64,000 nt of DNA from Candidatus Berkelbacteria bacterium (GTDB lineage: Bacteria; Patescibacteriota; UBA1384; DTJR01), in NCBI GenBank assembly GCA_026397175.1, contig JAPLVK010000022.1:5689-69688 (forward strand), written 5' to 3'. This document shows, piece by piece, positions 20,488 through 64,000 of the stretch (the stretch's first letter is position 1; each line of letters begins with the position of its first letter). The notes below the pieces were generated by a model, which had not been told where the DNA came from, made no database searches, and saw only the letters and a list, made by a program, of their open reading frames with translations. Position numbers and translations under genes: made by a program.

Positions 20488-21549
20488 TTAAAATACCATC
20501 TGCTTAAATTGTTTTGGGTCGTCCGACCACTTTAAGGCCTCTTCGAGCGTAATCTCCCCACGGGAGACAAAATCGGCCAAGACCTTATCGAGCGTAATCA
20601 TACCTTCGGACGCGCTGGTTTGGATGGTTGACTGGATCTGATGAATTTTGTCTTCGCGAATTAGATTTCTGACTGCGGAGTTGGCTACCAAAATTTCACA
20701 GGCCAAAACCCTCCCCTTACCCGAGGCCTTCGGAATAAGTCGTTGCGAAATAACACCCGAAATAACATTTGAGAGCTGTTGGCGAACTTGGTCTTGTTGG
20801 GATTTAGGAAAAACATCAATAATTCTTTTCGGGGTCTGCGCCGCCGAATTTGTGTGAAGTGTAGTAAAAATCAAATGCCCCGTTTCGGCAATGGTCAAAA
20901 CCGCCTCAAATGTTTCGAGATCGCGCATTTCCCCGACAAAAACAACATCGGGATCTTCGCGAAGCGCACTTCGAAGCGCGCGGGTAAAACTTAGTGTATC
21001 GGTTCCGAATTCTCGCTGCGAGATAATGCTCTTTGAGTTTTTAAAAATATATTCAGTCGGATCTTCGATTGTAACAATATGCTTCATTTTGCTCTGATTA
21101 ATGTATTCGATCAGAGCGGCAATCGTGGTTGACTTACCGTGACCGGTCGGGCCGGTAATAATAAGAAGGCCCTGCTCTCGGTTTGCGAATTCCTGCATAA
21201 TTGGCGGCAAGCCCAGATCTTCAAATGACAAAATATCAGCCGGAATAAACCGATATGATCCGGCAACGGCGCCGCTTTCAAAATAAACATTCGCTCTAAC
21301 TCTTGCGCTTTCGAAGTTGAAAGAGAAATCAACTTCTTTTTCTACCTTTAACCGTTCAATATATTCCGGACGCAAAGTTAGCGAAATTAAGTCCTCTGAC
21401 TCTTTAGCGCTTAAAACCCCTCCGTCATGTTTACTCAATTTTCCGTCAATTCTAAAAACCGGTGCTTCATTCGCTAAAATATGGACATCGCTGGCCTTGA
21501 GCTCAACGGCCTTTTGAAAAATCTCTTTGAGTCGCGAAATATTTTCCAT
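20488..21549 (-). CDS. pilT: Twitching-motility retraction ATPase PilT
   Basis: Walker A ITGPTGHGKSTT, Asp box and His box of PilT/GspE ATPases; 353 aa. Confidence 0.85.
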   Translation of the reverse strand: MENISRLKEIFQKAVELKASDVHILANEAPVFRIDGKLSKHDGGVLSAKESEDLISLTLRPEYIERLKVEKEVDFSFNFESARVRANVYFESGAVAGSYRFIPADILSFEDLGLPPIMQEFANREQGLLIITGPTGHGKSTTIAALIEYINQSKMKHIVTIEDPTEYIFKNSKSIISQREFGTDTLSFTRALRSALREDPDVVFVGEMRDLETFEAVLTIAETGHLIFTTLHTNSAAQTPKRIIDVFPKSQQDQVRQQLSNVISGVISQRLIPKASGKGRVLACEILVANSAVRNLIREDKIHQIQSTIQTSASEGMITLDKVLADFVSRGEITLEEALKWSDDPKQFKQMVF

Positions 21550-23813
21550 TACCCTCCTTCACTTATTCCCTTTGAAACACCGCTAACCCTTAAAACCTCG
21601 TCAACGGTTGTTAAGCCCTTAATCGCTTTGATAAATCCATCTTGTCTCATAGTTATCATACCTTCTTTTGTCGCTTGTGAGAAGATTTCGTCTGACGATT
21701 TCTTGGCTAAGACAAGATTTTCGATAGCTGAAGACATTGTCAAAACCTCATAGATGCCAATTCTTCCCGAAAAACCATCCTTACAATCAGGACACCCCTT
21801 GCCCTTAAAAAATTTCATCGGGATATTAAGATTTAATTTTTCCAGTTCCTTTTTGACCGCAAATTGAACCGATTGAGGAACACTAATTTCCACTCTGCAT
21901 TTTTGACAAATTCTTCTGACTAGCCGCTGCCCCATAATGGCGTTGATGGCGGAAGTTAAAAGAAACGGCTCGACTCCCAAGTTGTAAAGTCGAGGCAAAG
22001 CGCCCGAAGCGTCGTTGGTGTGTAAAGTTGATAAAACCAAGTGTCCGGTTAGGGCGGCGTGAGTAACCAGCTCCGCCGTTTCGCTGTCTCTGATTTCGCC
22101 GACCATTATGATGTTCGGGTCTTGGCGCAAAACGCTGCGCAGTCCTTCGGCAAAACTAAAGCCGATTTGGGGTTTGACCTGAACTTGATTGATACCGGGA
22201 AGTTCGTACTCGACCGGATCCTCAAGCGTTATGATATTTACTTCGGGGCGGTTAAGCCGGCTCAAAATTGAATATAAAGTGGTCGTCTTGCCGGATCCGG
22301 TCGGACCCGTTGATAAAATCACACCGTATGGTTTGGCGATGGCCTCAATCACCCTGTCGTAGCCCAACCCGTCAATGCCCAGATCTTCCAGCTTATCCAT
22401 ATTATGCGTCTTTGATAAAAGCCGCATGACGATTTTTTCACCAAATACGGTTGGCAGCGTCGAGACCCTGATATCAACCACTTCCTTGCCAACTGAAACA
22501 TCAAATCGTCCGTCTTGCGGGACTCTTTGTTCGTCGAGTTTTAGCTTGGAAAGGATTTTGACGCGGGCGACAATACTGGAAATCAAATTGGCCGGAAGCA
22601 ATGAAACATCACTTAGTTCCCCGTCAATTCGATATCTGACTCTGACTGTTTTTTCGAACGGCTCGATATGAACATCGCTGGCGCGATCCCTTGTTGCCAG
22701 CATTAAAATTGCCGCCACAAGCTTGGGGATTTGATCTGAATTTGCGTATTGTTTTATGTCGTCTGTGTCAACTTTGTCTCTACCTAAAAAAGCAATTAGA
22801 TCAGGATTTTCGAGTTCTTTTTGCTGCTTTGTAGCTTCGGCTTGTTTTTTTTCTTCTTGCTTAGAGTCCTCGGATTGCGCTTCCTCGGGTTTTTCTTCCT
22901 CGCCAGCTAATGGGCTTTCTTTCTTAACTTCTTCGATATCTTCTTTTTGTTCGGTCTTGGGTTCTTCTTCTTTTTGGGTCTTATCCTCTTTTGTAGATAA
23001 CTCTACTTCTTTTTTCTTGTTGTGCAGATCTTCGTATTTTTTTAAGACCTGATTTATTTGCTCGCCAGAGACCTGGAATAAATTGAGTTTAATATTCCCT
23101 TTGCTTTGAACAAAATCAATAATTTCGGCAAGTTTGGGATCATTTGGGTTTTCCGAGGCAATATCGAATGTGCCGTCTTTATTTTGCTTAAAAATTATTG
23201 CCCTAAATTTTTCGGCTAAATCGTACGGCATTTTCCGCAAAATATCTTCGGGGATTTCAATTTTACTTAAATCAATAATTTCAATTTTGTTTTCCGGTTT
23301 GTCCGTTGGTTTATCTTCCGGTTTTTTTTCTTCTTCTTTTTTGCTCGGATTTAAAAGCTCATTAGCCAAGTCGCGAGAGGCCATAAACAGCTCTATTTGC
23401 AAGGAAAGTTTTTCCTCTAATTTTTCTATCGCCTGCTTGTTCAAATTTTTAAATTTCTCGGGCTCTAAAATTGCTACTTGAAGAACCCTGTTTTTTAAAT
23501 CGAGTGAAAACGGAACAAAACCAAATCTTAAGGACAGGGCTTTGTCAATTAGTTTTTGGGCCTCCGGATCAACTTCTTCAATTATAATATAAGGAATAGA
23601 CAAAAATTTGGCATAAATTTCCGTCAGTTTAATATTGGAATACATCTTCGAAGAATCAAGCGCTTCAAAGACCTCTTCGGGCGACTTATATTTTTCTTTG
23701 AGATGGGAAATATCACCTTGCAAAATTACGCCACTTTTAAAAAGAAGGTCGGCGAACTCGGCCACTTTATCGTTTGAGCTAACTTTGAATTGAGTTGCGC
23801 TTTGATCTTCCAC
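21549..23813 (-). CDS. pilB: Type IV pilus assembly ATPase PilB/GspE with Lys/Glu-rich insertion
   Basis: LSTGPTGSGKTTTLYS Walker A and a C-terminal tetra-Cys CxxC...CxxC. About 70 aa of K/E low-complexity linker. Confidence 0.85.
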   Translation of the reverse strand: MEDQSATQFKVSSNDKVAEFADLLFKSGVILQGDISHLKEKYKSPEEVFEALDSSKMYSNIKLTEIYAKFLSIPYIIIEEVDPEAQKLIDKALSLRFGFVPFSLDLKNRVLQVAILEPEKFKNLNKQAIEKLEEKLSLQIELFMASRDLANELLNPSKKEEEKKPEDKPTDKPENKIEIIDLSKIEIPEDILRKMPYDLAEKFRAIIFKQNKDGTFDIASENPNDPKLAEIIDFVQSKGNIKLNLFQVSGEQINQVLKKYEDLHNKKKEVELSTKEDKTQKEEEPKTEQKEDIEEVKKESPLAGEEEKPEEAQSEDSKQEEKKQAEATKQQKELENPDLIAFLGRDKVDTDDIKQYANSDQIPKLVAAILMLATRDRASDVHIEPFEKTVRVRYRIDGELSDVSLLPANLISSIVARVKILSKLKLDEQRVPQDGRFDVSVGKEVVDIRVSTLPTVFGEKIVMRLLSKTHNMDKLEDLGIDGLGYDRVIEAIAKPYGVILSTGPTGSGKTTTLYSILSRLNRPEVNIITLEDPVEYELPGINQVQVKPQIGFSFAEGLRSVLRQDPNIIMVGEIRDSETAELVTHAALTGHLVLSTLHTNDASGALPRLYNLGVEPFLLTSAINAIMGQRLVRRICQKCRVEISVPQSVQFAVKKELEKLNLNIPMKFFKGKGCPDCKDGFSGRIGIYEVLTMSSAIENLVLAKKSSDEIFSQATKEGMITMRQDGFIKAIKGLTTVDEVLRVSGVSKGISEGG

Positions 23814-51447: not shown

Positions 51448-52290
51448 TTATCTTTCCTTAATCATTTGTTTACCTCTAATCCTTGGCGAAAAGTTTTTGC
51501 CGGTAACTACGCTTTTCCCAGTTTTGTTTTCGAGGGCTTTTCTTGCGTCTTTCGCAATTTTACCACCTTTTTTGGCTGGAATCTTATTTTCTTCCAATCC
51601 TTTTGTTTTGTCTGTCTCGGCGATTCGTCTTGTTGAAAGTTCGGCAAGCGCGGTGAAGATCAATTCTTCTTCGCTCATATGATCTCGCAGATTTTGCGTT
51701 TTTAAGCCCTTCAAATTCTTGTGATCTTTGACGGATAAATCGCTCCATTCTTTGTGAATAATATTCGTCAATATTGCAAATTCTTCGCCCTCTTTTACTT
51801 CGTGATCAGCCCAATAATCAGTCAATTTGTTTCTGGTCTCATGCCCAGTCATCCGTTGCTGAATCCACTTTTGGCTTCGGCCCATTTTCTGCCAATAACT
51901 CCTTGATCTATCTAGTGCTTTTTCCGGATCTGCCATTTCTTGTATTCTCTCGTAACCAGTTTTCGCTAGCCACAATTTAAATGGCTCGGCTTTTTTACTC
52001 GGGACTGACTGAATGATTCTAAATATTTGTTCTGTACTGCCTGCCAAAGTTTTTCTTTTTTTCCCTGTCTCTGTGACCATTTCTACCTGGGGACAATTTG
52101 TCCCTATGTAATGCCCGACCTCGAAGTCCCTTTTGCGAAGCTTTTTGAGATAGTCGGTTGGATTTATACTATCGGTAAGTGCTGCGATAATATCAATTAC
52201 CGAAAAATACCATGTTTCGGTTTTTTCGTCATAATACCGACGAATTTTGAAGCTTTCGAAAATAGCTAATGAATTTTGTTTAATTTTCAT
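51448..52290 (-). CDS. DinD-like (DNA-damage-inducible protein D family) protein
   Basis: ...HETRNKLTDYWADHEV...NLRDHMSEEELIFTALAE resembles the E. coli DinD conserved core. Confidence 0.6.
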   Translation of the reverse strand: MKIKQNSLAIFESFKIRRYYDEKTETWYFSVIDIIAALTDSINPTDYLKKLRKRDFEVGHYIGTNCPQVEMVTETGKKRKTLAGSTEQIFRIIQSVPSKKAEPFKLWLAKTGYERIQEMADPEKALDRSRSYWQKMGRSQKWIQQRMTGHETRNKLTDYWADHEVKEGEEFAILTNIIHKEWSDLSVKDHKNLKGLKTQNLRDHMSEEELIFTALAELSTRRIAETDKTKGLEENKIPAKKGGKIAKDARKALENKTGKSVVTGKNFSPRIRGKQMIKER

Positions 52291-52294
52291 ATTT

Positions 52295-53245
52295 TCAATT
52301 CTTCAATTTTTTTAAATTAAATTTTGTGATTTCTTTGCGCACGATTTTTTCCATTTCTTTGTGTGATATTTTACCTTTACTCGATAATATTTCCAATTTA
52401 TTTGCCTTAAGCATATTGTCAAGATAAGAATCCCAGTCCTTCATATACATAACATTTTGGCGCTCAATCTGAAATTCAGCATAAGAAAGAAATTGCTCAA
52501 CCAGTAAATAAAGTTGGCGAAGCTCTGTTTCAAGCATATAATTTTTGGCGATCTCTGCTTCTTGTCTCGTTACGGAAACTTTTTTGTAATTGGTCATACC
52601 AAGATTTTCTTTTCTGCTGTCAATCCGATTAACAACTAATTCGGCGGCAGTTTTGCCTGTTATGGCATGGTGAAATTTATTCTGCATAGCAGCATAAAAC
52701 TTTTTTGTATAATCGGCTTTAGTATCATAGTCCGCACTGGTTGAAAAAATATCTTTGACTTTTTCGTATAAATTTCTTTCCGAAGCGCGAATCTTTCGGA
52801 CGCGCTCCAGCATCTCACCAAAATATCCTCGTTTGTAGCCGCCGTTTGCTAGCCGCTCATCGTCCATAACAAATCCTTTGACAATATATTCTCGCAGGGT
52901 CTTTGTCGCCCAAATACGGAATTGCGTACCCCGAAAAGATTTTACCCGATAGCCAACGGAAATAATTACATCGAGATTATATTGCTCGATTTCACGAATT
53001 ATTTCCCTTGGTCCCTCTTTTTGAACTATCCGGAATTTCCGGACAGTTGGAACCCTACTTAGTTCTCCTTCACTAAAAATATTTTTAATGTGTTCGTTTA
53101 CAGTTTTAACATCTTTCTCGAATAGTTCAGCCATCTGTTTCTGGGATAACCAAACTGTCTCGCCGGTCATCCGAACTTCAATTTGAGTTGAACCGTCTTC
53201 AGTTTTATAAATAATGACTTGGTTTTTCTTGCTAGATTCTTTCAT
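52295..53245 (-). CDS. RhuM-family protein
   Basis: VRKFRIVQKEGPREIIREIEQYNLDVIISVGYRVKSFRGTQFRIWATKTLREYIVKGFVMDDERLANGG is a close match to the RhuM signature. Confidence 0.75.
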   Translation of the reverse strand: MKESSKKNQVIIYKTEDGSTQIEVRMTGETVWLSQKQMAELFEKDVKTVNEHIKNIFSEGELSRVPTVRKFRIVQKEGPREIIREIEQYNLDVIISVGYRVKSFRGTQFRIWATKTLREYIVKGFVMDDERLANGGYKRGYFGEMLERVRKIRASERNLYEKVKDIFSTSADYDTKADYTKKFYAAMQNKFHHAITGKTAAELVVNRIDSRKENLGMTNYKKVSVTRQEAEIAKNYMLETELRQLYLLVEQFLSYAEFQIERQNVMYMKDWDSYLDNMLKANKLEILSSKGKISHKEMEKIVRKEITKFNLKKLKN

Positions 53246-53404
53246 TTACACTCTCTCTGCGCGCCATCCGTGATTTTAATGTAAGATGGATGATTTTTAT
53301 TATAAAAATTCCTTATCGCCCGTCTGCAAAAGCTTTGCTTTAGCTAATGCGGGCAGGCTAATTATTAGGGTAAAAGCGTAGCATCCCCCTCCCAAAAACT
53401 GCCA

Positions 53405-53737
53405 TCAAGTTCCCTTTCTTGCTAAATAATTAAATGCATAAAAATAATTTTGCCATGATTTGTCGGTGGATTGATATTGGTTTTCGAAAAACCAATCGGC
53501 TAAAACCTCGCGCATTCGGCAGAGTTCACGCAATTGTTTTTTATTTTTCGGATCGAGCCGTGTTATGTCAATCAGCTCCAAAGCGCGCTCGAAAGCAAGC
53601 TGCGAATATTCTAAATCATTTTTATTTTTCCAGATAATCGTTCGCTCCACTTCACTGCCGATATTGGCCATTTGCTCGGCTAACGATTTAGAAAACCATT
53701 TTTTTTCTGTTAAGTCCTTATGATAAAAAAGATTCAT
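53405..53737 (-). CDS. Hypothetical helical protein (partner of a DUF protein)
   Basis: 110 aa; start overlaps the stop of the upstream gene (ATGA). Confidence 0.35.
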   Translation of the reverse strand: MNLFYHKDLTEKKWFSKSLAEQMANIGSEVERTIIWKNKNDLEYSQLAFERALELIDITRLDPKNKKQLRELCRMREVLADWFFENQYQSTDKSWQNYFYAFNYLARKGT

Positions 53738-54075
53738 TTTTGAACTATTTTGTTAACAACTATAATTATCTTTTCGCGAATTTTTGGATCGTCAACCGAT
53801 CTTGTTCGATTGCCTTGTGAGGGGCGCAAGTTAACCATCGAATCAAATTCGATAAATTCCTCGCCGGTTTTTTCGGGATACAAATTTATTCCCCAAAGAT
53901 TTTGTTGTTTCGAACCATTTTGAAGCAGTAATTCTTCTTCGTCACTATGCATTCCCGCGTCAACAGCCATAACCTCTTTCTCAATATCAACAACCGCCTT
54001 AATCAAAGTGCCAAACATATCCTCGGCCATCTTTTTTAATTCGCTAAGTGATATATTATCTTCAATTATTTTCAT
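53734..54075 (-). CDS. Conserved small protein of unknown function
   Basis: MKIIEDNISLSELKKMAEDMFGTLIKAVVDIEKEVMAVDAGMHSDEEELLLQNGSKQQNLWGINLYPEK... Confidence 0.4.
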   Translation of the reverse strand: MKIIEDNISLSELKKMAEDMFGTLIKAVVDIEKEVMAVDAGMHSDEEELLLQNGSKQQNLWGINLYPEKTGEEFIEFDSMVNLRPSQGNRTRSVDDPKIREKIIIVVNKIVQK

Positions 54076-54189
54076 AAATTAATATTTACCTCACCTTAAG
54101 CTTCCCATAAATCAAGAAAAAAATAAAGTCCAAGCATCGGTTCTAATTTTGCAACTTTAAAAATTCACTCATTTTCCCTTTCTCCCCTG

Positions 54190-54217
54190 CACTTTTGAGA
54201 CGATCGTCTCAAAAGTG
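54190..54217. repeat. 28-bp perfect palindrome (CGATCG-core family), left bracket of the PaaX-like gene
   Basis: cacttttgagacgatcgtctcaaaagtg. Confidence 0.7.
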
Positions 54218-54262
54218 TATGCCTCAAACCTGTATTTACTTGCTAGTTTTTATAATATGAGA

Positions 54263-54841
54263 TTAAAGATCGAATTTATTTTTAAGATATTCTTCACAAT
54301 CAATCTTGGAAAGTTCTCCGTAATTAACAAATTTTTCAACTTCAAAGACCGAACTAATAAAAGATATCTCATCCTCGCACTTATAGGGGCAAACCCAAAC
54401 ACTTTTTTGCAATTTGACAAAACCGATTTCTATCAATTTACTTCTCAAAATATTTCTAGCAAATCGGAGTTTTTCGGGAATATCAAAAAATACTATTCTC
54501 CATTTGCCATCCCATTTATGTTTATTAATCGAAATAGCATCAATGTCATAATCCACTAACCTTACCTTACCTTTTTGTGTAATTTTAATAATTGTTTTGC
54601 CTTTTCGATAGGTAATCTGAACAAATCGGTCCTTAATTATTTTCTCGAGTGATTTATCAACTGCTTCATCGCCGTGTTTCTTGCGCAGCTTGTTCAGTTT
54701 GGGAATAAATTTTGAAAGCCCATAAGGAGAAGTCAAGGCAACACCGATTACCAAACCAATCAGCACCACTTCCAATACCAATTTTGCTACCTCAACGAAA
54801 ACTTCTTTTTCATATTTGGTAAGCCGAACCTTTGAACTCAT
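54263..54841 (-). CDS. PaaX-C/Cas2-fold domain protein with N-terminal transmembrane helix
   Basis: WDGKWRIVFFDIPEKLRFARNILRSKLIEIGFVKLQKSVWVCPY resembles the PaaX C-terminal (Cas2/VapD-like) domain. ATG at Met-13 of the ORF-track ORF; the track's GTG start would sit inside the palindrome. Confidence 0.5.
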   Translation of the reverse strand: MSSKVRLTKYEKEVFVEVAKLVLEVVLIGLVIGVALTSPYGLSKFIPKLNKLRKKHGDEAVDKSLEKIIKDRFVQITYRKGKTIIKITQKGKVRLVDYDIDAISINKHKWDGKWRIVFFDIPEKLRFARNILRSKLIEIGFVKLQKSVWVCPYKCEDEISFISSVFEVEKFVNYGELSKIDCEEYLKNKFDL

Positions 54842-54872
54842 ATACTTAACATTATCACTAATTTGAATCCTC

Positions 54873-54906
54873 TGCACTTTTGAGACGATCGTCTCAAAAG
54901 TGCAGG
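54873..54906. repeat. 34-bp perfect palindrome (extends to about 40 bp imperfect), right bracket of the PaaX-like gene
   Basis: ctgcacttttgagacgatcgtctcaaaagtgcag. Confidence 0.7.
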
Positions 54907-55232
54907 CAGAGGGTGTATCTTTATTACGCTGAATCTCGGAAAAATAAATTTAGAGAACTGATTTTTGATAACCCCGAGCCAAAGGATTCCCCTTGGGGAA
55001 GAGGACCCTTGGGGCATTTTTATGGTTCGCTCCGCCGGCTGGCGGATTTAGGATGAAAAAAAATTTATCCTATGATTCGTTGATAATATTTTTCGCCCAT
55101 TCGACTCGCTTCGCTCGTTCAGGATGAAAGTTGTCTTTATAATACCGATTTCTGGTAGCAACTTTCGCCCTTCGACAAGCTCCCTCCTTCGCTAAAGCTA
55201 CGGAAGGGCAAGCAGAGTGAATCTTGCTCGTG

Positions 55233-56954
55233 TTATATCACTTCTTTTTGGTAGCAAGATTCACAGTAAACTTTTTCCGGTCTTTCGGGTGCATAGGTGG
55301 TTTCGAATTCGTTGGGGCAGTGGCCAGAATGATCGTGGCCAGGCAGATCGCACATGCATTGGCGGTGATACAAAACCCGCGGATTGCGCAGTTTAAATAA
55401 TTCTTTGTATCTCACCTCGGAATGTTTAGTTGGCACGGGAATTCTCTGTCTTATATAAAACGCCAACTCTTGCGGCATGATTTTGAACGGTTTTCCCGAC
55501 TTTTCACATTTCAAAACTCCCGCCAGCAATTTTTTAACTTCTTCGTCTGAATTTATGTAATCATCAATTGAATCTTTTGGCTCGTAGGCTTCGCCTTTAT
55601 AATCAGGATTGTATTCTTTGTCCTGCCACTTGCCGCCAATTTTCTCGGCTTCTGCCTTGGTTTTGGGATGATAAATATTAGCCATTGTTTCGTTGTAACC
55701 AAACAAAGACATTTTCATCGGGCAAAACTCTCCCCACTCGCCGTCTTTTTGCATTCGCTCAATTATTTTTGGCACCAATTTATCATATTCTTCCTTGGTA
55801 TACTGTTTATTCAAAATACAATGCTGCTTGTGATTAATCCCGATACAGCCAAAACAATTTGAGCAGTAATCAATAAAGTTACAATACAAATTACTGTCTC
55901 CGTAGGCGGTCCAGACACTAAAACGGTTTTTGTAACCAGCGTTGCTTGTCCCGTCGTAACAGAGTTCCGCTTCGGTAATATAATCGAGGTCGCGGCAATC
56001 CTTGCTATCAGCATCAATATTGGTGATCCTGACACAATTTTGGCTTTTATAGGCGTTAAAACACTTTTTGCAGTCTTTACATTCAATTAAATAATCACCT
56101 GTGCAGTTTTCTGTTTTGACATTGTTGTTTTCTTTGTGAATCGCCTTGAGCATGCCTTCGCCGGATCTCTTTTTGTATTCTTCGACCACCGATCTTCTGC
56201 CAAAATCAATTTCCTTTAATTTCTTTTTGTATTCTTCTTCGGAGTACTCTTTGTTTTCAATGCAATATTGCTTATTGTGTAAACCCGCACAAAGCAAAAC
56301 ATTGTTGCACCCTCGGCAGTCGTAAGAAAAATAAGATTCGGAGCAATTCTCACAATGCTCTAAATACATTGAATTATGGCAATGATCGCAGTCAAAACAA
56401 TGGTAGCAATATTCACAATTTCTAATATCAAAACAATCAATGCAGTCCTTAGTATAAAAAGTTTCGGTGCAGTAATAGCATCTTTCCGCATAGCCAGCAT
56501 TAAAACAAAGATACGAATCCTTCGTCTGCCAAGTTTGATTGCAAAAATTACTGTTCTCAACGATGGTAGTATTGTTGGCCTGACGCGGAACGGCTAGTAA
56601 AAGTTCATTAAACTGCTCAAAAAATGACTGGTTGAAATCGAATTCACGGCCGAAGCTCATTGGATCCCAGTCGTCGGATCTCCAGACAGAATTTTTATAA
56701 ACCTTGTAGGGCTTGTCCGGAGAATAAACCGAGACAATTTCCTCGCCTGTTTTATCACATTTTCTTTTATAAAGTGAGCGCTCGTTTCTCCAGCAGAGTC
56801 GCCTGATTTGTCGGCAGGTGTAGCAAAGTTTTGGGGCATCAATTTTATAAACCCGCCCATTCAAAACCGGACTAATTTTTTCCAGAAACGCCAAATCATC
56901 ATCGCTAACGACAAATTCTTGTCCACATTGTTTGCAAGTTTTATTTTCTGCCAT
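55233..56954 (-). CDS. Cys-rich repeat protein with duplicated terminal zinc-ribbon-like domains
   Basis: N-terminus CKQCGQEF...ELAFLEKISP...CYTCRQIRRLCWRNERSLYKRKCDKTG...VY. The C-terminus repeats this pattern (KCEKSGKPFKI...ELAFYIRQRIPVP...CESCY). The middle has more than 12 C-x2-C units about 12-13 aa apart. Confidence 0.45.
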   Translation of the reverse strand: MAENKTCKQCGQEFVVSDDDLAFLEKISPVLNGRVYKIDAPKLCYTCRQIRRLCWRNERSLYKRKCDKTGEEIVSVYSPDKPYKVYKNSVWRSDDWDPMSFGREFDFNQSFFEQFNELLLAVPRQANNTTIVENSNFCNQTWQTKDSYLCFNAGYAERCYYCTETFYTKDCIDCFDIRNCEYCYHCFDCDHCHNSMYLEHCENCSESYFSYDCRGCNNVLLCAGLHNKQYCIENKEYSEEEYKKKLKEIDFGRRSVVEEYKKRSGEGMLKAIHKENNNVKTENCTGDYLIECKDCKKCFNAYKSQNCVRITNIDADSKDCRDLDYITEAELCYDGTSNAGYKNRFSVWTAYGDSNLYCNFIDYCSNCFGCIGINHKQHCILNKQYTKEEYDKLVPKIIERMQKDGEWGEFCPMKMSLFGYNETMANIYHPKTKAEAEKIGGKWQDKEYNPDYKGEAYEPKDSIDDYINSDEEVKKLLAGVLKCEKSGKPFKIMPQELAFYIRQRIPVPTKHSEVRYKELFKLRNPRVLYHRQCMCDLPGHDHSGHCPNEFETTYAPERPEKVYCESCYQKEVI

Positions 56955-57508
56955 TATATTCTTTTATACTCTTTTTCTAATCCAAGTTTTTTTACCCATT
57001 CGTTTATATAATCGTTATCCACTTTCGAAATCTCTAAAATTGATTTAATATCATCCGCGTGTCGGCTGGAATTGTCTTTTTGCATCCACTGAAGTTTGGA
57101 AATTATTAAATCCTCCGGGGAAATAAATCTAACTTCGCGGCCAATATCTTTTTTAATTGATCTTCTTAGTCGCAGTTTATCATAATCTTTGTTATAGACA
57201 ATCCAAAAATCAATTTTCATTCCGATATTTGGTTCTATAATATTGAACTCACCATTATTTTTTAGAGCATCTCTCATTTGAAGAGGATCTATATACGCAT
57301 CTGGAAATTCACTTTTTAATTTGCCGGCGAGCTGATCGATATTTTTTTCTTCGAGATGAATAACTAAATCAATATCTGCTGTAAACCGAGGTTTTCCCCA
57401 AACAGATACTGCAAAACCTCCGCTAACAAAAAAATCGATTCTTAAATTATTTAAGATTTCTGCGATTTTATTTAAGAGGTCTGTTGGGGTTTTGGGTTGT
57501 TTTTGCAT
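56954..57508 (-). CDS. Minimal nucleotidyltransferase (Pol-beta-like NTase fold) protein
   Basis: GGFAVSVWGKPRFTADIDLVIH matches the hG[GS]x9-13Dh[DE]h motif. Its stop overlaps the next ATG as TAATG. Confidence 0.6.
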   Translation of the reverse strand: MQKQPKTPTDLLNKIAEILNNLRIDFFVSGGFAVSVWGKPRFTADIDLVIHLEEKNIDQLAGKLKSEFPDAYIDPLQMRDALKNNGEFNIIEPNIGMKIDFWIVYNKDYDKLRLRRSIKKDIGREVRFISPEDLIISKLQWMQKDNSSRHADDIKSILEISKVDNDYINEWVKKLGLEKEYKRI

Positions 57509-57645
57509 TTGAAAAATTTGGGGTTAACTTTTTTTGCGTACGCAAAAAAACCGTTTAGCATTTCGAGTTTTTCAGTAGCCGTTTTTCCCTTGATTACCGA
57601 CATATAAAATTTATCGGCTTTAGAGGTTGCGCTTTTTTTCTTCAT
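57472..57645 (-). CDS. Small basic protein overlapping the NTase start
   Basis: MKKKSATSKADKFYMSVIKGKTATEKLEMLNGFFAYAKKVNPKFFKCKNNPKPQQTS; 37-bp overlap with the NTase start. Confidence 0.3.
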   Translation of the reverse strand: MKKKSATSKADKFYMSVIKGKTATEKLEMLNGFFAYAKKVNPKFFKCKNNPKPQQTS

Positions 57646-57754
57646 ATTGTTTAAAGTTTCCCACAAACCACTTGAAAAATAAAGCATAACCAAACTCCAC
57701 CCGCCGGGTGGAGTTTTAAGGGTTTTGATTGATCTGTTTAAAATTTAAATTTAT

Positions 57755-58840
57755 TTATAGCACACTTTTAATAATCTCCAGGGCTTTTTTGAGCTTGATC
57801 TTATCTGATATCAAACTAATTCTGAAATAATCTTTTCGAGAAGAAAAAATACTTCCGGGCATCACAAGCACGCCTTTTTTCGCTAGTTCGGCAACGAATA
57901 TTTTCTCTTCTGATGGGCATTTTATAAAAAAATAAAAACCGCCGTCAGGAATCACAAATTTGAAATTACCACCTAGCTCTTTTATTACCATATCTCGATT
58001 TTTCTTATATATCTTTGAAGCTTTTTGGGAAATATCAAGGTTATCCACAAATAATTCTTGAATAAAATCCGCGACACAGACCTGCTCTAGAAACAAAAGT
58101 TTATTGGCGGCTTCGATCACTTCGACCGGCCCGCACAAGTAGCCGATTCTCAATCCGGTTGCGGCGTGGGATTTAGAAAAACTGTTGACAACAATGGTTT
58201 TATAGTAAAACTCTGCCGGGCTTAAGAATTTATTGTCATAATCGAAATCCTTATATACCTCGTCGGAGATTATAAACAAATCATGTTTCTTGGCTAGCTT
58301 GACGACCTCAAGCAAAAATTCTTTGGTATAAATCCGGCCGGTAGGGTTGCTTGGGGAATTGAGTAAGATTGCTTTGGTCTTTGTTGAGATTTTTTTGCTG
58401 ATTTGTGATAACTCGGGAATGAATGTTGGAAAGGTTGGGATGACCTTCGGTTTAGCCCCAACAATTTTGGCAAGCTCAATGTACGGAGGAAAATAGGGCT
58501 CAAAAATAATAATCTCGTCATCACGATCAAAAAGCGTTTGATAAGCAAGAAACAAAGAATACGAACTGCCAGTAGTGATTAGAATATTATCTTTGGTGTA
58601 TTGAGTTTTGTTCTGATTGTTGATGTGATCCGCGATTTGTTCTCGAAGTATAGTGTTTCCTTTGGAAGATGAGTATTTAAATCGAGAATTTGAACAGTTG
58701 AGAAGTTTTTGTTTAACCTTTTTGTGCACATCAAAATCGGGTTCCCCGATCGTAAGGTTAATCAAATCGTTTGATTGGGATTTGAAATAACCTTCGAGGT
58801 TAGGCAGGATGATCCTATTAATTGTTTTTGACAGTTTCAT
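57755..58840 (-). CDS. Class I/II pyridoxal-phosphate aminotransferase
   Basis: NLTIGEPDF, ...SFSKSHAATGLRIGY (PLP lysine). Start taken at Met-19 (MKLSKTIN...). Confidence 0.8.
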   Translation of the reverse strand: MKLSKTINRIILPNLEGYFKSQSNDLINLTIGEPDFDVHKKVKQKLLNCSNSRFKYSSSKGNTILREQIADHINNQNKTQYTKDNILITTGSSYSLFLAYQTLFDRDDEIIIFEPYFPPYIELAKIVGAKPKVIPTFPTFIPELSQISKKISTKTKAILLNSPSNPTGRIYTKEFLLEVVKLAKKHDLFIISDEVYKDFDYDNKFLSPAEFYYKTIVVNSFSKSHAATGLRIGYLCGPVEVIEAANKLLFLEQVCVADFIQELFVDNLDISQKASKIYKKNRDMVIKELGGNFKFVIPDGGFYFFIKCPSEEKIFVAELAKKGVLVMPGSIFSSRKDYFRISLISDKIKLKKALEIIKSVL

Positions 58841-59913
58841 TGGATTTGTTTTGCTTCGCTTTCTCAACTTTCTCTTTAGCAATTTGGTAAGCAATCATCA
58901 TCGGAGGAACATTTTTTTCTTTCGATAGCGCAAATACCTGCTTCAAAAGGCCCGGAATTAAGTCGGTTTTCTTGAGCGCATTATTGACATCTTCGCCTCT
59001 CACTTCGCACATACCATGGCAAACTCCTCCTGCATTGATTACAAAGTCAGGAGCATGAAGGATGCCCTTTGCGTACAAAATCCGGCTGTGTTTTACTTCG
59101 TCCTTTAGCTGATTATTCGCTCCACCAGCGATTATTTTGCAATTTAACTCATCAATCGAATCATCATTAATTATTTCTCCGATTGCATTGGGAGAGAAGA
59201 TATCACATTTTACTTTGTGAATTTCTTTTGGATCAACTATCTCAACACTATATTCTTTTTCGTATTTTTTGGTCAGCGCTTCATCAAGATCAGAACCGTA
59301 AATCTTAACATTATGCGAAGAAAGCAGCTCAACAAGCGTCCCACCAACATATCCGAGCCCTTGCACTGCTATAGTTAAGCCGTCAAGATTCTCGTTATTG
59401 AGAAATTCTTTTGCGCATTCCTTAATCCCTTTATAAACGCCGTGTCCGGTTGTTACGCCCGAGCATCCTTTGGAGTTAAAGATGTACTTCGTTTTTTCGC
59501 GAATGATTTTGGCGTCATCGAGGCTAAGTCCCATATCAACTCCGGTTAGAAATGCTCCGCCCAAGGATTCTATGAAATTGCCGATTGCATGCAAAAATTC
59601 TTTGCTTTTTGGTTTACTGGGATCACCGATCACTACCGCTTTTGATCCGCCAAAGGGCTCGTTTATAATTGCATTTTTATATGTCATAGCATAAGAAAGA
59701 CGCAGCGCTTCTTCGATCGCCTTGGCTTCCGAAACATCCACCATTCTGGTTCCGCCCGTGCTTGGCCCCAGTGTGGTATCATGAATCGCTACAACCATTT
59801 TTAATCCGGTCTCCTGGTTGTACCCGAAAATGATTTTCTCGTGCTCGTTGGTTTCCATAATGTCGAAGACATTTGTCTTGATGTCTGGTTCGATATAGGT
59901 GAGTTTTTTCATG
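58818..59913 (-). CDS. Leucine/phenylalanine dehydrogenase-like (Glu/Leu/Phe/Val DH family)
   Basis: VAIHDTTLGPSTGGTRM... and a Rossmann GLGYVGG. Start taken at MKKLTYIE, preceded by GGAGGAA at a 5-nt spacing; the ORF-track N-terminal extension is unsupported. Confidence 0.8.
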
Positions 59914-63069: not shown

Positions 63070-64000
63070 CTACAAGATTGGTGCCGAGAAGTTTTCGTCT
63101 TTGAGTTTGTCGAGGACTTCCAGCTCTTTAGATTTTTCGCGTGAAATTTCCCGCTCGGCCTCGGCTTTATTGATACAATAATTCGCGCGCGAGTTTGCGA
63201 CAATTTGTTCTTTAAATGAAGTTGTAACTTCGGGAACGGTCAGTGTTTTGGCGGAGAAGGCCTCTTTGACCTCTTCGTCAATTGAAAGTTTGAGATAAAT
63301 TTCGCGAACACCCAAATTTGTAATATCAATGGCTTTAAATCGCGGCTCAAATTCTTGCTCCAAAAGCGCGGCATCCTCCGGCCCGATTCTAAAGGAGATG
63401 ATCGAGCCGACATTTCCAAAAACCGTTTTGCGAATAACTTCTGAAAGCTGCGAAACATATTGATGAGACATGGTCAGCGATAATTTATATTTCCTTGATT
63501 CTGACAAGATGTTTGAAAATGATTCGGTGGCAAAGTTTTGAAACTCATCAACATTAAGATAAAACGGCACGCGTTGATTTTCAGCAACATCGGCGCGAGC
63601 GAGCGCGGTTTGATAAATTCTGGTGATCAACATCGCGCCCAAAAGAGAAACATTTTCTTCGCCCAAAATCCCCTTCGGCAATTTAACCAGAAGGATCTTT
63701 TTGTTATCCATAATATCTTTGAGCACAACTTTATTTTCTTCTTGACCGACAATATTTCGAATCAGAGCGTTTGAAACAAACTGGCCGATTTTATTTAAAA
63801 TCGGCATAATCGCTTCGGAGTCAAACTTTTCCGACCAGCCGGCAAATTCGTTGGTCCAGAAATTTTTAACAACTTGATCTTCGATCGTTTTGATAATTTC
63901 TTGACGATATTCTCGGTCGGTTAAAATAAGCAAAATTGACATAACCGAGGCCTTGGGCGCGTCAAGCAAAGCCAAAAGCGTCATTCTTAAAACATGCTCG
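63070..64000 (-). CDS. C-terminal part of a HerA/TraG/VirD4-like (DUF87/AAA-like) ATPase; N-terminus beyond the window
   Basis: ...VPFYLNVDEFQNFATESF... resembles the Walker-B/DEFHxL region of DUF87/coupling-protein ATPases. The ORF is still open at 64000. Confidence 0.35.
   Translation of the reverse strand, partial: EHVLRMTLLALLDAPKASVMSILLILTDREYRQEIIKTIEDQVVKNFWTNEFAGWSEKFDSEAIMPILNKIGQFVSNALIRNIVGQEENKVVLKDIMDNKKILLVKLPKGILGEENVSLLGAMLITRIYQTALARADVAENQRVPFYLNVDEFQNFATESFSNILSESRKYKLSLTMSHQYVSQLSEVIRKTVFGNVGSIISFRIGPEDAALLEQEFEPRFKAIDITNLGVREIYLKLSIDEEVKEAFSAKTLTVPEVTTSFKEQIVANSRANYCINKAEAEREISREKSKELEVLDKLKDENFSAPIL

Follow-up and report, generated by a model that had tools for sequence, protein, structure and literature searches.

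A putative MenAT1-like toxin–antitoxin cassette beside the probable last intact member of an array of cysteine-rich solenoid proteins in a Candidatus Berkelbacteria bacterium

Introduction

Does the overlap of a stop codon with the following start codon mark three adjacent genes as parts of one functional system? This question is raised by a locus in a 64,000-nt stretch of DNA (hereafter the window) from a Candidatus Berkelbacteria bacterium (assembly GCA_026397175.1, contig JAPLVK010000022.1, positions 5,689–69,688 of the forward strand). On the minus strand of this window, a small open reading frame (ORF) for a basic protein (57472..57693) is followed by a gene for a nucleotidyltransferase (NTase; 184 aa, 56954..57508) and by a gene for a cysteine-rich (Cys-rich) protein (573 aa, 55233..56954). 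A preliminary description of this DNA interpreted the three genes as one functional module. Our comparative analysis points to a different answer. We consider it likely that the locus consists of two independent units that lie side by side on an accessory island, downstream of a gene for a VirD4-like ATPase. The first unit, the small ORF together with the NTase, would be a toxin–antitoxin (TA) cassette similar to MenAT1. The second unit, the 573-aa gene, belongs to a protein family that occurs throughout the candidate phyla radiation (CPR), and would be the only copy still intact in an array that has otherwise decayed.

Results and Discussion

The Cys-Rich Gene Is an Occasional Neighbor of the NTase Gene

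The ORF map confirmed that all three genes lie on the minus strand and that both of the overlaps originally noted are real. Base 56954 belongs to the stop codon of the NTase gene as well as to the start codon of the Cys-rich gene (TAATG), and the small ORF overlaps the start of the NTase gene by 37 nt. In the lineage of the window, the TAATG overlap probably entails co-transcription and translational coupling of the NTase and the Cys-rich gene. The neighborhoods of related genes present another picture. A Cys-rich gene directly follows the NTase gene at 5 of 62 NTase loci, and the genes 3′ of the NTase are highly variable across these loci. Conversely, an NTase gene is present at only 2 of the 78 genome loci that were fetched with a profile of the Cys-rich protein and that hold about 260 copies of its gene. 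The adjacency that was to be checked across genomes is thus mostly not conserved, and these counts do not support a single three-gene module. A search with the PADLOC defense models, suggested in the same description, returned no model that matches any of the three proteins.

Several observations weigh against a separation into two units. Arranged by NTase identity, the Cys-rich gene directly follows every relative that is at least 55% identical (3 of 3 loci), one of 19 at 50–55% and one of 40 at 40–50%. Locus L008 (loci are referred to by such numbers) shows the identical stop/start overlap between the NTase and the Cys-rich gene. Finally, the NTases with an adjacent Cys-rich gene occupy at least four separate positions in a rough neighbor-joining tree (window/L008/L011; L006/L007; L073; L127). 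This scatter implies that the juxtaposition arose or persisted more than once. A proponent of functional coupling could add to the TAATG overlap and to the three closest NTase relatives that the same gene order recurs in L008/L010, L011, L006 and L007, and that the juxtaposition extends to two distant NTases, those of L073 and of the Peregrinibacteria locus L127. The Cys-rich protein would then be the sensor, the target, a tripartite-TA-like chaperone or a nucleotidylylation substrate of a three-component system. We regard such a system as unlikely, given the unrelated downstream genes at 57 of the 62 NTase loci and the scarcity of NTases at Cys-rich loci. Moreover, the cassettes of L006, L007, L073 and L127 lie inside or beside an existing array of Cys-rich genes, as insertion into dispensable intergenic space predicts, and these arrays occupy a sizable share of small genomes, so that some adjacency is expected by chance.

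We read the locus as a mobile TA-type cassette that lodged in dispensable array or island DNA and was then inherited vertically within the clade of the window. On this reading, the TAATG overlap is a product of genome compaction and shared descent and not of a three-component mechanism.

The Small ORF and the NTase Form a Conserved Two-Gene Cassette

A profile of the NTase family fetched 80 metagenomic loci, 66 of which are non-redundant and have enough sequence upstream of the NTase. According to a hidden Markov model (HMM) of the upstream ORFs, members of one small-ORF family precede the NTase at all 66 of these loci. This HMM included the small ORF of the window, and a leave-out version was rebuilt without the window's clade. 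The leave-out HMM recovers a 41% identical relative of the window's small ORF, that of L008 (E = 6e-7). Through this relative the window's small ORF, itself very divergent (13–29% identity to family members), is tied to the upstream-ORF family. Together, the small ORF and the NTase constitute a conserved cassette of two genes.

The small protein is basic (pI 9.96) and would comprise 73 residues if translated from TTG 57693, or 57 residues if translated from ATG 57645. A terminator-like hairpin with an 11-bp stem (57692..57716, minus strand) lies between the stop codon of the preceding aminotransferase gene and the small ORF. Because this hairpin (57716..57692 in the direction of transcription) overlaps the TTG start, translation from the ATG is more likely. 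Since the hairpin follows the aminotransferase gene, the small ORF, the NTase and the Cys-rich gene are probably transcribed apart from the leucine dehydrogenase (LeuDH)-like and aminotransferase genes; they had already been judged functionally unrelated to that operon, and the hairpin separating them agrees with this view. Rfam and tRNA scans of positions 53000–59000 returned no match. No family in Pfam or NCBIfam matches the small protein above threshold, and its single match in PADLOC, to a reverse transcriptase model, is at chance level.

The NTase passes the thresholds of two Pfam families, AbiEii (PF08843, 37.1 bits; gathering cutoff 22.5) and DUF6036 (PF19502, 27.2 bits; cutoff 23.6). 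Among solved structures, the family profile matches an uncharacterized “nucleotidyltransferase-like protein” (5uvd, E = 4e-10) and MenT1 (8an4, 8an5 and 8rr5, E = 3e-8). MenT1 from M. tuberculosis is a toxin that acts as a tRNA 3′-end nucleotidyltransferase, with D41, K137 and D152 as conserved core residues; its antitoxin MenA1, a helical protein of 68 residues, inhibits MenT1 in two ways, by binding to it and by causing it to auto-phosphorylate T39 (PMC10435456, PMC11375011). By profile comparison, this tRNA-NTase toxin is the closest characterized relative of solved structure. The NTase aligns to MenT1 (8an4) over the segment GGFAVS..PRFTxDxD, with the HMM alignment limited to residues 7–65.

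Eight residues of the NTase (G30, G31, T43, D45, D47, D100, K138 and D153) are invariant among 51 homologs. The assignment of K138 and D153 as counterparts of MenT1 K137 and D152 is inferred by position only. The core motif reads GG-x13-DID (G30 G31 ... D45 I D47); the preliminary description recognized the GG...DID core correctly and gave the spacing as GG-x10-DIDL, which does not stand. Its comparison with MntA and AbiEii proteins needs a similar correction. The likeness to AbiEii and DUF6036 holds at Pfam thresholds, and that to MntA does not, as NTP_transf_2 (PF01909) finds no match among the three proteins or their neighbors. The same Pfam search found no HEPN domain in these proteins and neighbors, in agreement with the original statement that the partner of the NTase is not a HEPN protein.

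The cassette resembles MenAT1 in several respects. Both encode a short DUF1814/AbiEii-type NTase (about 185–196 aa) with a GG...PRFT-x-D-x-D core; T43, D45, K138 and D153 lie at positions matching T39, D41, K137 and D152 of MenT1; and both have a tiny partner immediately upstream (57–73 aa here, 68 aa in MenA1). The hosts differ: MenAT1 (PDB 8AN4, 8AN5 and 8RR5) is from M. tuberculosis, the window pair from a CPR bacterium. Two negative results count against this kinship. No resemblance in sequence could be detected between the window's small protein and MenA1, which the profile of the small-ORF family does not detect either, and the leave-out HMM misses the small ORF of the window when applied to it directly. 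On balance, we infer with fair confidence that the small ORF and the NTase form a MenAT1-like TA pair, by virtue of toxin homology and analogous architecture.

The cassette was also compared with two other NTase-containing systems. Like the abortive infection system AbiE (a type IV TA system), the cassette contains an NTase that scores above the gathering threshold of AbiEii (PF08843). However, it lacks an AbiEi/COG5340 winged helix-turn-helix antitoxin and has a basic protein of about 57 residues upstream instead, and its NTase of 184 residues is shorter than the 238 positions of the AbiEii profile. The AbiEii models of PADLOC-DB 2.0 reach only 12–13 bits with this NTase (E = 0.015–0.027). 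MntA-HepT also combines a small Pol-beta-fold NTase with a bicistronic TA-like arrangement. In MNT-HEPN pairs, though, the antitoxin role falls to the NTase. The NTase of the window is most likely the toxin, and the HEPN partner is absent.

If the NTase acted like MenT1, it would add nucleotides to tRNA 3′ ends and thereby block translation. The upstream protein of about 57 residues, basic and probably helical, would neutralize the NTase through binding; in addition it might, in the way MenA1 acts on MenT1, induce the NTase to phosphorylate itself at the conserved Thr43. An alternative is that the small ORF is spurious and that the NTase is no toxin but works on its own in resistance or housekeeping, as an enzyme of the Lnu/ANT type. 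The divergence of the window's small ORF would fit this idea, as would weak NCBIfam matches of the NTase to Lnu(E) and Lnu(AN2) (E = 0.005–0.07). These matches reach 17 bits against cutoffs of 340–350, however, and a spurious ORF is difficult to reconcile with one family of overlapping small ORFs at 66 of 66 loci. With a toxin as the best characterized relative of solved structure, we deem a stand-alone enzyme very unlikely. As a TA pair, this half of the locus is routine: it would add CPR bacteria to the range of MenT1-type tRNA-NTase toxins, together with a small-antitoxin family that is new.

The Cys-Rich Protein Combines Predicted Beta-Solenoids with Terminal Zinc Domains

The 573-aa protein contains 42 cysteines (7.3%) and, counted by hand, 15 overlapping C-x2-C pairs, of which 12 are central. 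To locate repeats, sub-alignments of a 94-homolog alignment were compared with hhalign. The two ends of the protein are indeed paralogous, as had been proposed (residues 5–93 versus 481–570, probability 99%, E = 9e-18). Four cysteines are invariant in each copy, and they are different ones. The N-terminal domain (residues 1–112; 56619..56954, minus strand) keeps what we call site A (C7/C10/C44/C47), followed by an Arg-rich helix, and the C-terminal domain (residues 471–573; 55236..55544, minus strand) keeps site B (C533/C546/C564/C567). The second site is also present in the N-terminal copy of some homologs. From this we conclude that the ancestral terminal domain would have carried two Zn(Cys)4 sites, of which each copy lost a different one. 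The single C4 pattern with which the preliminary description characterized both ends therefore merges two distinct sites, although the paralogy behind it is sound.

The center of the protein is likewise duplicated (residues 128–249 versus 277–397, probability 99.9%, E about 6e-35). Each copy is a predicted beta-solenoid block with Cys or Ser at period-3 positions. Block 1 (residues 125–250; 56205..56582, minus strand) carries a capping NKQY..EEY motif, and block 2 (residues 276–400; 55755..56129, minus strand) is its paralog. An AlphaFold2 model of the protein is confident (predicted local distance difference test score 85.9, predicted template modeling score 0.87). The central cysteines are spaced in multiples of three, are 34–95% conserved and often alternate with Ser. 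Because of this spacing and substitution they are better explained as core rungs of a solenoid than as obligatory metal ligands. The more than 12 tandem C-x2-C units described initially thus exist as pairs, and the central ones are rungs of the beta-solenoids and not separate units; independent zinc knuckles in the center were considered and rejected on the same grounds.

These features also bear on the possibility that the protein is a metal store, a metallochaperone or a multi-cluster iron–sulfur protein in which each C-x2-C binds metal. A cysteine content of 7.3%, the 15 overlapping pairs and four invariant cysteines in each terminal site could be taken as signs of such a function. We nevertheless find this the least probable of the explanations considered. 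The solenoid cysteines are variably conserved and commonly replaced by Ser, and their strict period-3 placement is typical of inward-facing rungs of a beta-helix. In addition, the protein shows no ferredoxin-type CxxCxxCxxxC spacing and matches no metal-binding family in Pfam.

The 573-aa protein has neither a signal peptide nor a hydrophobic segment (maximum Kyte–Doolittle score 0.77), and for lack of the latter it is probably cytoplasmic. The presumed cytoplasmic location and the absence of a Hexapep match in Pfam are points of difference from known beta-solenoids such as left-handed beta-helix (hexapeptide) enzymes, the spruce budworm and ryegrass antifreeze/ice-binding proteins and curli CsgA. 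Foldseek found no PDB structure similar to the model at E ≤ 1e-3, and a PDB search with the full-length sequence gave no match. A profile of the N-terminal domain found only the Tfb3/MAT1 RING in the PDB, at a non-significant E of 0.07. The treble-clef family zf_Tbcl_2 (PF23477) does not match the window protein and among the homologs matches only P0080, in its C-terminal residues 560–595. Pfam, NCBIfam and PADLOC contain no match to the 573-aa protein at E ≤ 1, and PHROGs contains one weak match (E = 7e-4), a family without an assigned function. The original remark that this architecture fits no characterized family has therefore held up.

The family itself is large. It includes at least 6,948 homologs, all annotated as hypothetical, with the one identical sequence coming from a Candidatus Berkelbacteria metagenome-assembled genome, and an exhaustive profile search yields 5,573 clusters at 50% identity; the best 150 are nearly all full-length (541–625 aa). 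Matches in genomes come from Berkelbacteria, Peregrinibacteria/Peribacteria, Gracilibacteria, Abawacabacteria, Nomurabacteria, Paceibacterota and other Patescibacteria. Searches of phage and plasmid collections with tblastn found no member, and 2.9 million viral contigs contain one marginal fragment of the family. Given that these collections are nearly empty of matches, there is no obvious sign that mobile elements or viruses carry the family. Our survey of the literature on Berkelbacteria and on Cys-rich, zinc-ribbon and VirD4 proteins of Patescibacteria/CPR found no description of it. The “cysteine-rich proteins” of Peribacteria are large, secreted and pappalysin-like (PMC4736985) and do not belong to the same family.

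Arrays of Old Paralogs Recur with a VirD4-Like ATPase

At 59 of the 78 genome loci, Cys-rich genes form same-strand tandem arrays, the largest with up to eight copies within 13.7 kb. All 265 of 265 copies share the strand of the copy by which their locus was fetched and oriented. Consecutive genes are closely packed: 63% of the pairs lie within 150 nt, and many overlap. Most copies (171 of 192, or 89%) are more similar to a copy from another species than to any array-mate; the median best identities are 54.6% and 43.8%, respectively. Array-mates are uniformly old (39–52% identical). By these measures of identity, the copies appear to be specialized paralogs that were retained together and not the result of fast-turnover expansion. 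The age of the array-mates and their affinity to copies from other species also led us to reject a diversifying “immune-sensor” expansion.

Unbiased clustering of the ORFs that neighbor Cys-rich genes at 83 loci gave only three families that recur at more than four loci, namely the Cys-rich family itself, a TrmB-like regulator (about 252 aa; 29 of 83) and a VirD4-like ATPase (about 750 aa; 21 of 83). An ATPase homolog is likewise present at 21 of the 78 genome loci. Across several CPR phyla, the ATPase gene lies mostly directly beside an array and is co-directional with it. A TrmB-like gene can be found on the opposite strand inside or beside an array, as in L151 (5146–5904, minus strand) and L005 (4084–4836). 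Genes for tRNA-related or translation functions are also often near Cys-rich genes (L001, L005, L006, L169 and the window). They include gatCAB, PheT, seryl-tRNA synthetase, a tryptophanyl/tyrosyl-tRNA synthetase (Trp/TyrRS)-type gene, a YbaK-like gene, RF1 and a CsaA-like tRNA-binding protein. This neighborhood could merely mirror the density of such genes in CPR genomes.

The ATPase scores above the Pfam gathering thresholds of TrwB_AAD_bind, T4SS-DNA_transf, TraG-D_C and DUF87, domains that it shares with the type IV coupling proteins VirD4, TraD and TrwB and with HerA/FtsK. Unlike type IV coupling proteins, the ATPase homologs have no detectable N-terminal hydrophobic segment or membrane anchor, and no other component of a type IV secretion system recurs at more than four of the 83 loci. 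NCBIfam equivalogs reach 30–50 bits against cutoffs of 250–650, and a sequence search of the PDB gave no match.

Sequence variability in the Cys-rich family peaks at residues 121–200 and 241–360. We surmise that the paralogs of an array may act jointly as subunits or clients of the VirD4/HerA-like ATPase. In this scheme the zinc ends, which are conserved, would attach to a partner or to nucleic acid, while specificity would come from the variable faces of the solenoids. This cooperation is suggested, weakly, by gene neighborhood and fold only, which must be held against this part of our interpretation. More tentatively, the arrays could encode a CPR-specific multi-subunit machine, composed of the old paralogs, the soluble ATPase and the TrmB-like regulator. 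The paralogs might, for instance, join head-to-tail via their zinc domains into a hetero-polymeric solenoid filament or scaffold, which the ATPase would drive or translocate. A machine of this kind might have a role in the transfer of DNA or protein between an episymbiont and its host.

Of the two units, the Cys-rich half of the locus matters more. It stands for thousands of proteins with a confident but unmatched fold, for which we found no description in Pfam, NCBIfam or the literature. The family and its ATPase-linked arrays are new as a gene family and as a gene organization, in that no described match was found. Genomes of about a megabase seldom carry so much DNA without strong selection, and here genome-reduced CPR bacteria maintain up to eight genes of 1.7 kb each in a single array. 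The recurrent soluble ATPase and the TrmB-like regulator provide a concrete starting point for tests of a possible new cellular machine, which could bear on the interaction between episymbiont and host or on the handling of DNA.

The Window Probably Holds the Remains of an Array on an Accessory Island

The usual neighbor of Cys-rich arrays is also present in the window. The 3′ part of a VirD4/TraD/HerA-like ATPase gene (63070..64000, minus strand, cut by the end of the window) lies 6 kb upstream of the locus, and its product is 81% identical to residues 442–750 of the ATPase of L008 (tblastn). In L008 the gene order is ATPase, small ORF, NTase and three Cys-rich copies; in L090 it is ATPase, Cys-rich gene, a DUF5674 gene and a gene for a 110-aa protein. 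The window has five interposed genes of housekeeping type (a Trp/TyrRS-type gene, a YbaK-like gene, a 333-aa ORF and the LeuDH-like and aminotransferase genes), and it retains only one intact Cys-rich copy. The first Cys-rich copy after the NTase in L008 (5555–7279) is called as two genes of 37 and 525 aa, although tblastn aligns it end to end; this copy may be interrupted by an in-frame stop codon or may be a pseudogene.

Downstream of the intact copy, the window contains the relic 3′ end of a lost Cys-rich gene (55064..55166, minus strand), which reads ..ESCYQKSVL* at 55137–55166. By blastn, this DNA matches the 3′ ends of Cys-rich genes from L099, L140, L002, L105, L004 and L162 at 77–91% identity. 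A second relic gene end, at 54950–54973, reads ..GYQKSVL*. The presence of two relic gene ends next to one intact copy indicates that a Cys-rich array decayed in the window. Both relics lie in a 355-nt spacer (54878–55232) 3′ of the Cys-rich gene; each strand of this spacer is strongly structured (z = −4.1 and −4.3).

Beyond the spacer, a DUF5674 gene (113 aa; 53734–54075, minus strand; PF18924, E = 3.5e-37) overlaps a gene for a 110-aa protein (53405–53737, minus strand). The two constitute a second conserved two-gene module of the island. The pair recurs in L002, L006, L023, L064 and L090; in L069 the DUF5674 gene, likewise next to the small-ORF/NTase cassette, stands alone at a contig end. 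Each of these loci has the NTase, the ATPase or Cys-rich arrays as well. In L006, L023 and L064 the pair adjoins the small-ORF/NTase cassette, and in L002, L006, L064 and L090 it is near a VirD4-like ATPase gene. It may be another TA-like module.

Between this pair and the relics, a PaaX_M/Cas2-like gene (54263–54877) is flanked by identical palindromes of 25–29 nt (TTTTGAGACGATCGTCTCAAAA..., at 54186–54217 and 54872–54906), which may act as terminators in both directions or mark where a small inserted element begins and ends. Further downstream, at 51448–53245, the window encodes a RhuM-family protein (E = 3e-97) and a Bro-N protein, typical cargo of prophages and islands, which suggests an accessory island that takes in the whole stretch. 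Finally, a gene at 21549–23813 codes for a 754-aa ATPase of the PilB/T2SSE type with an MshEN domain; it probably belongs to a type IV pilus machinery and is unrelated to the locus.

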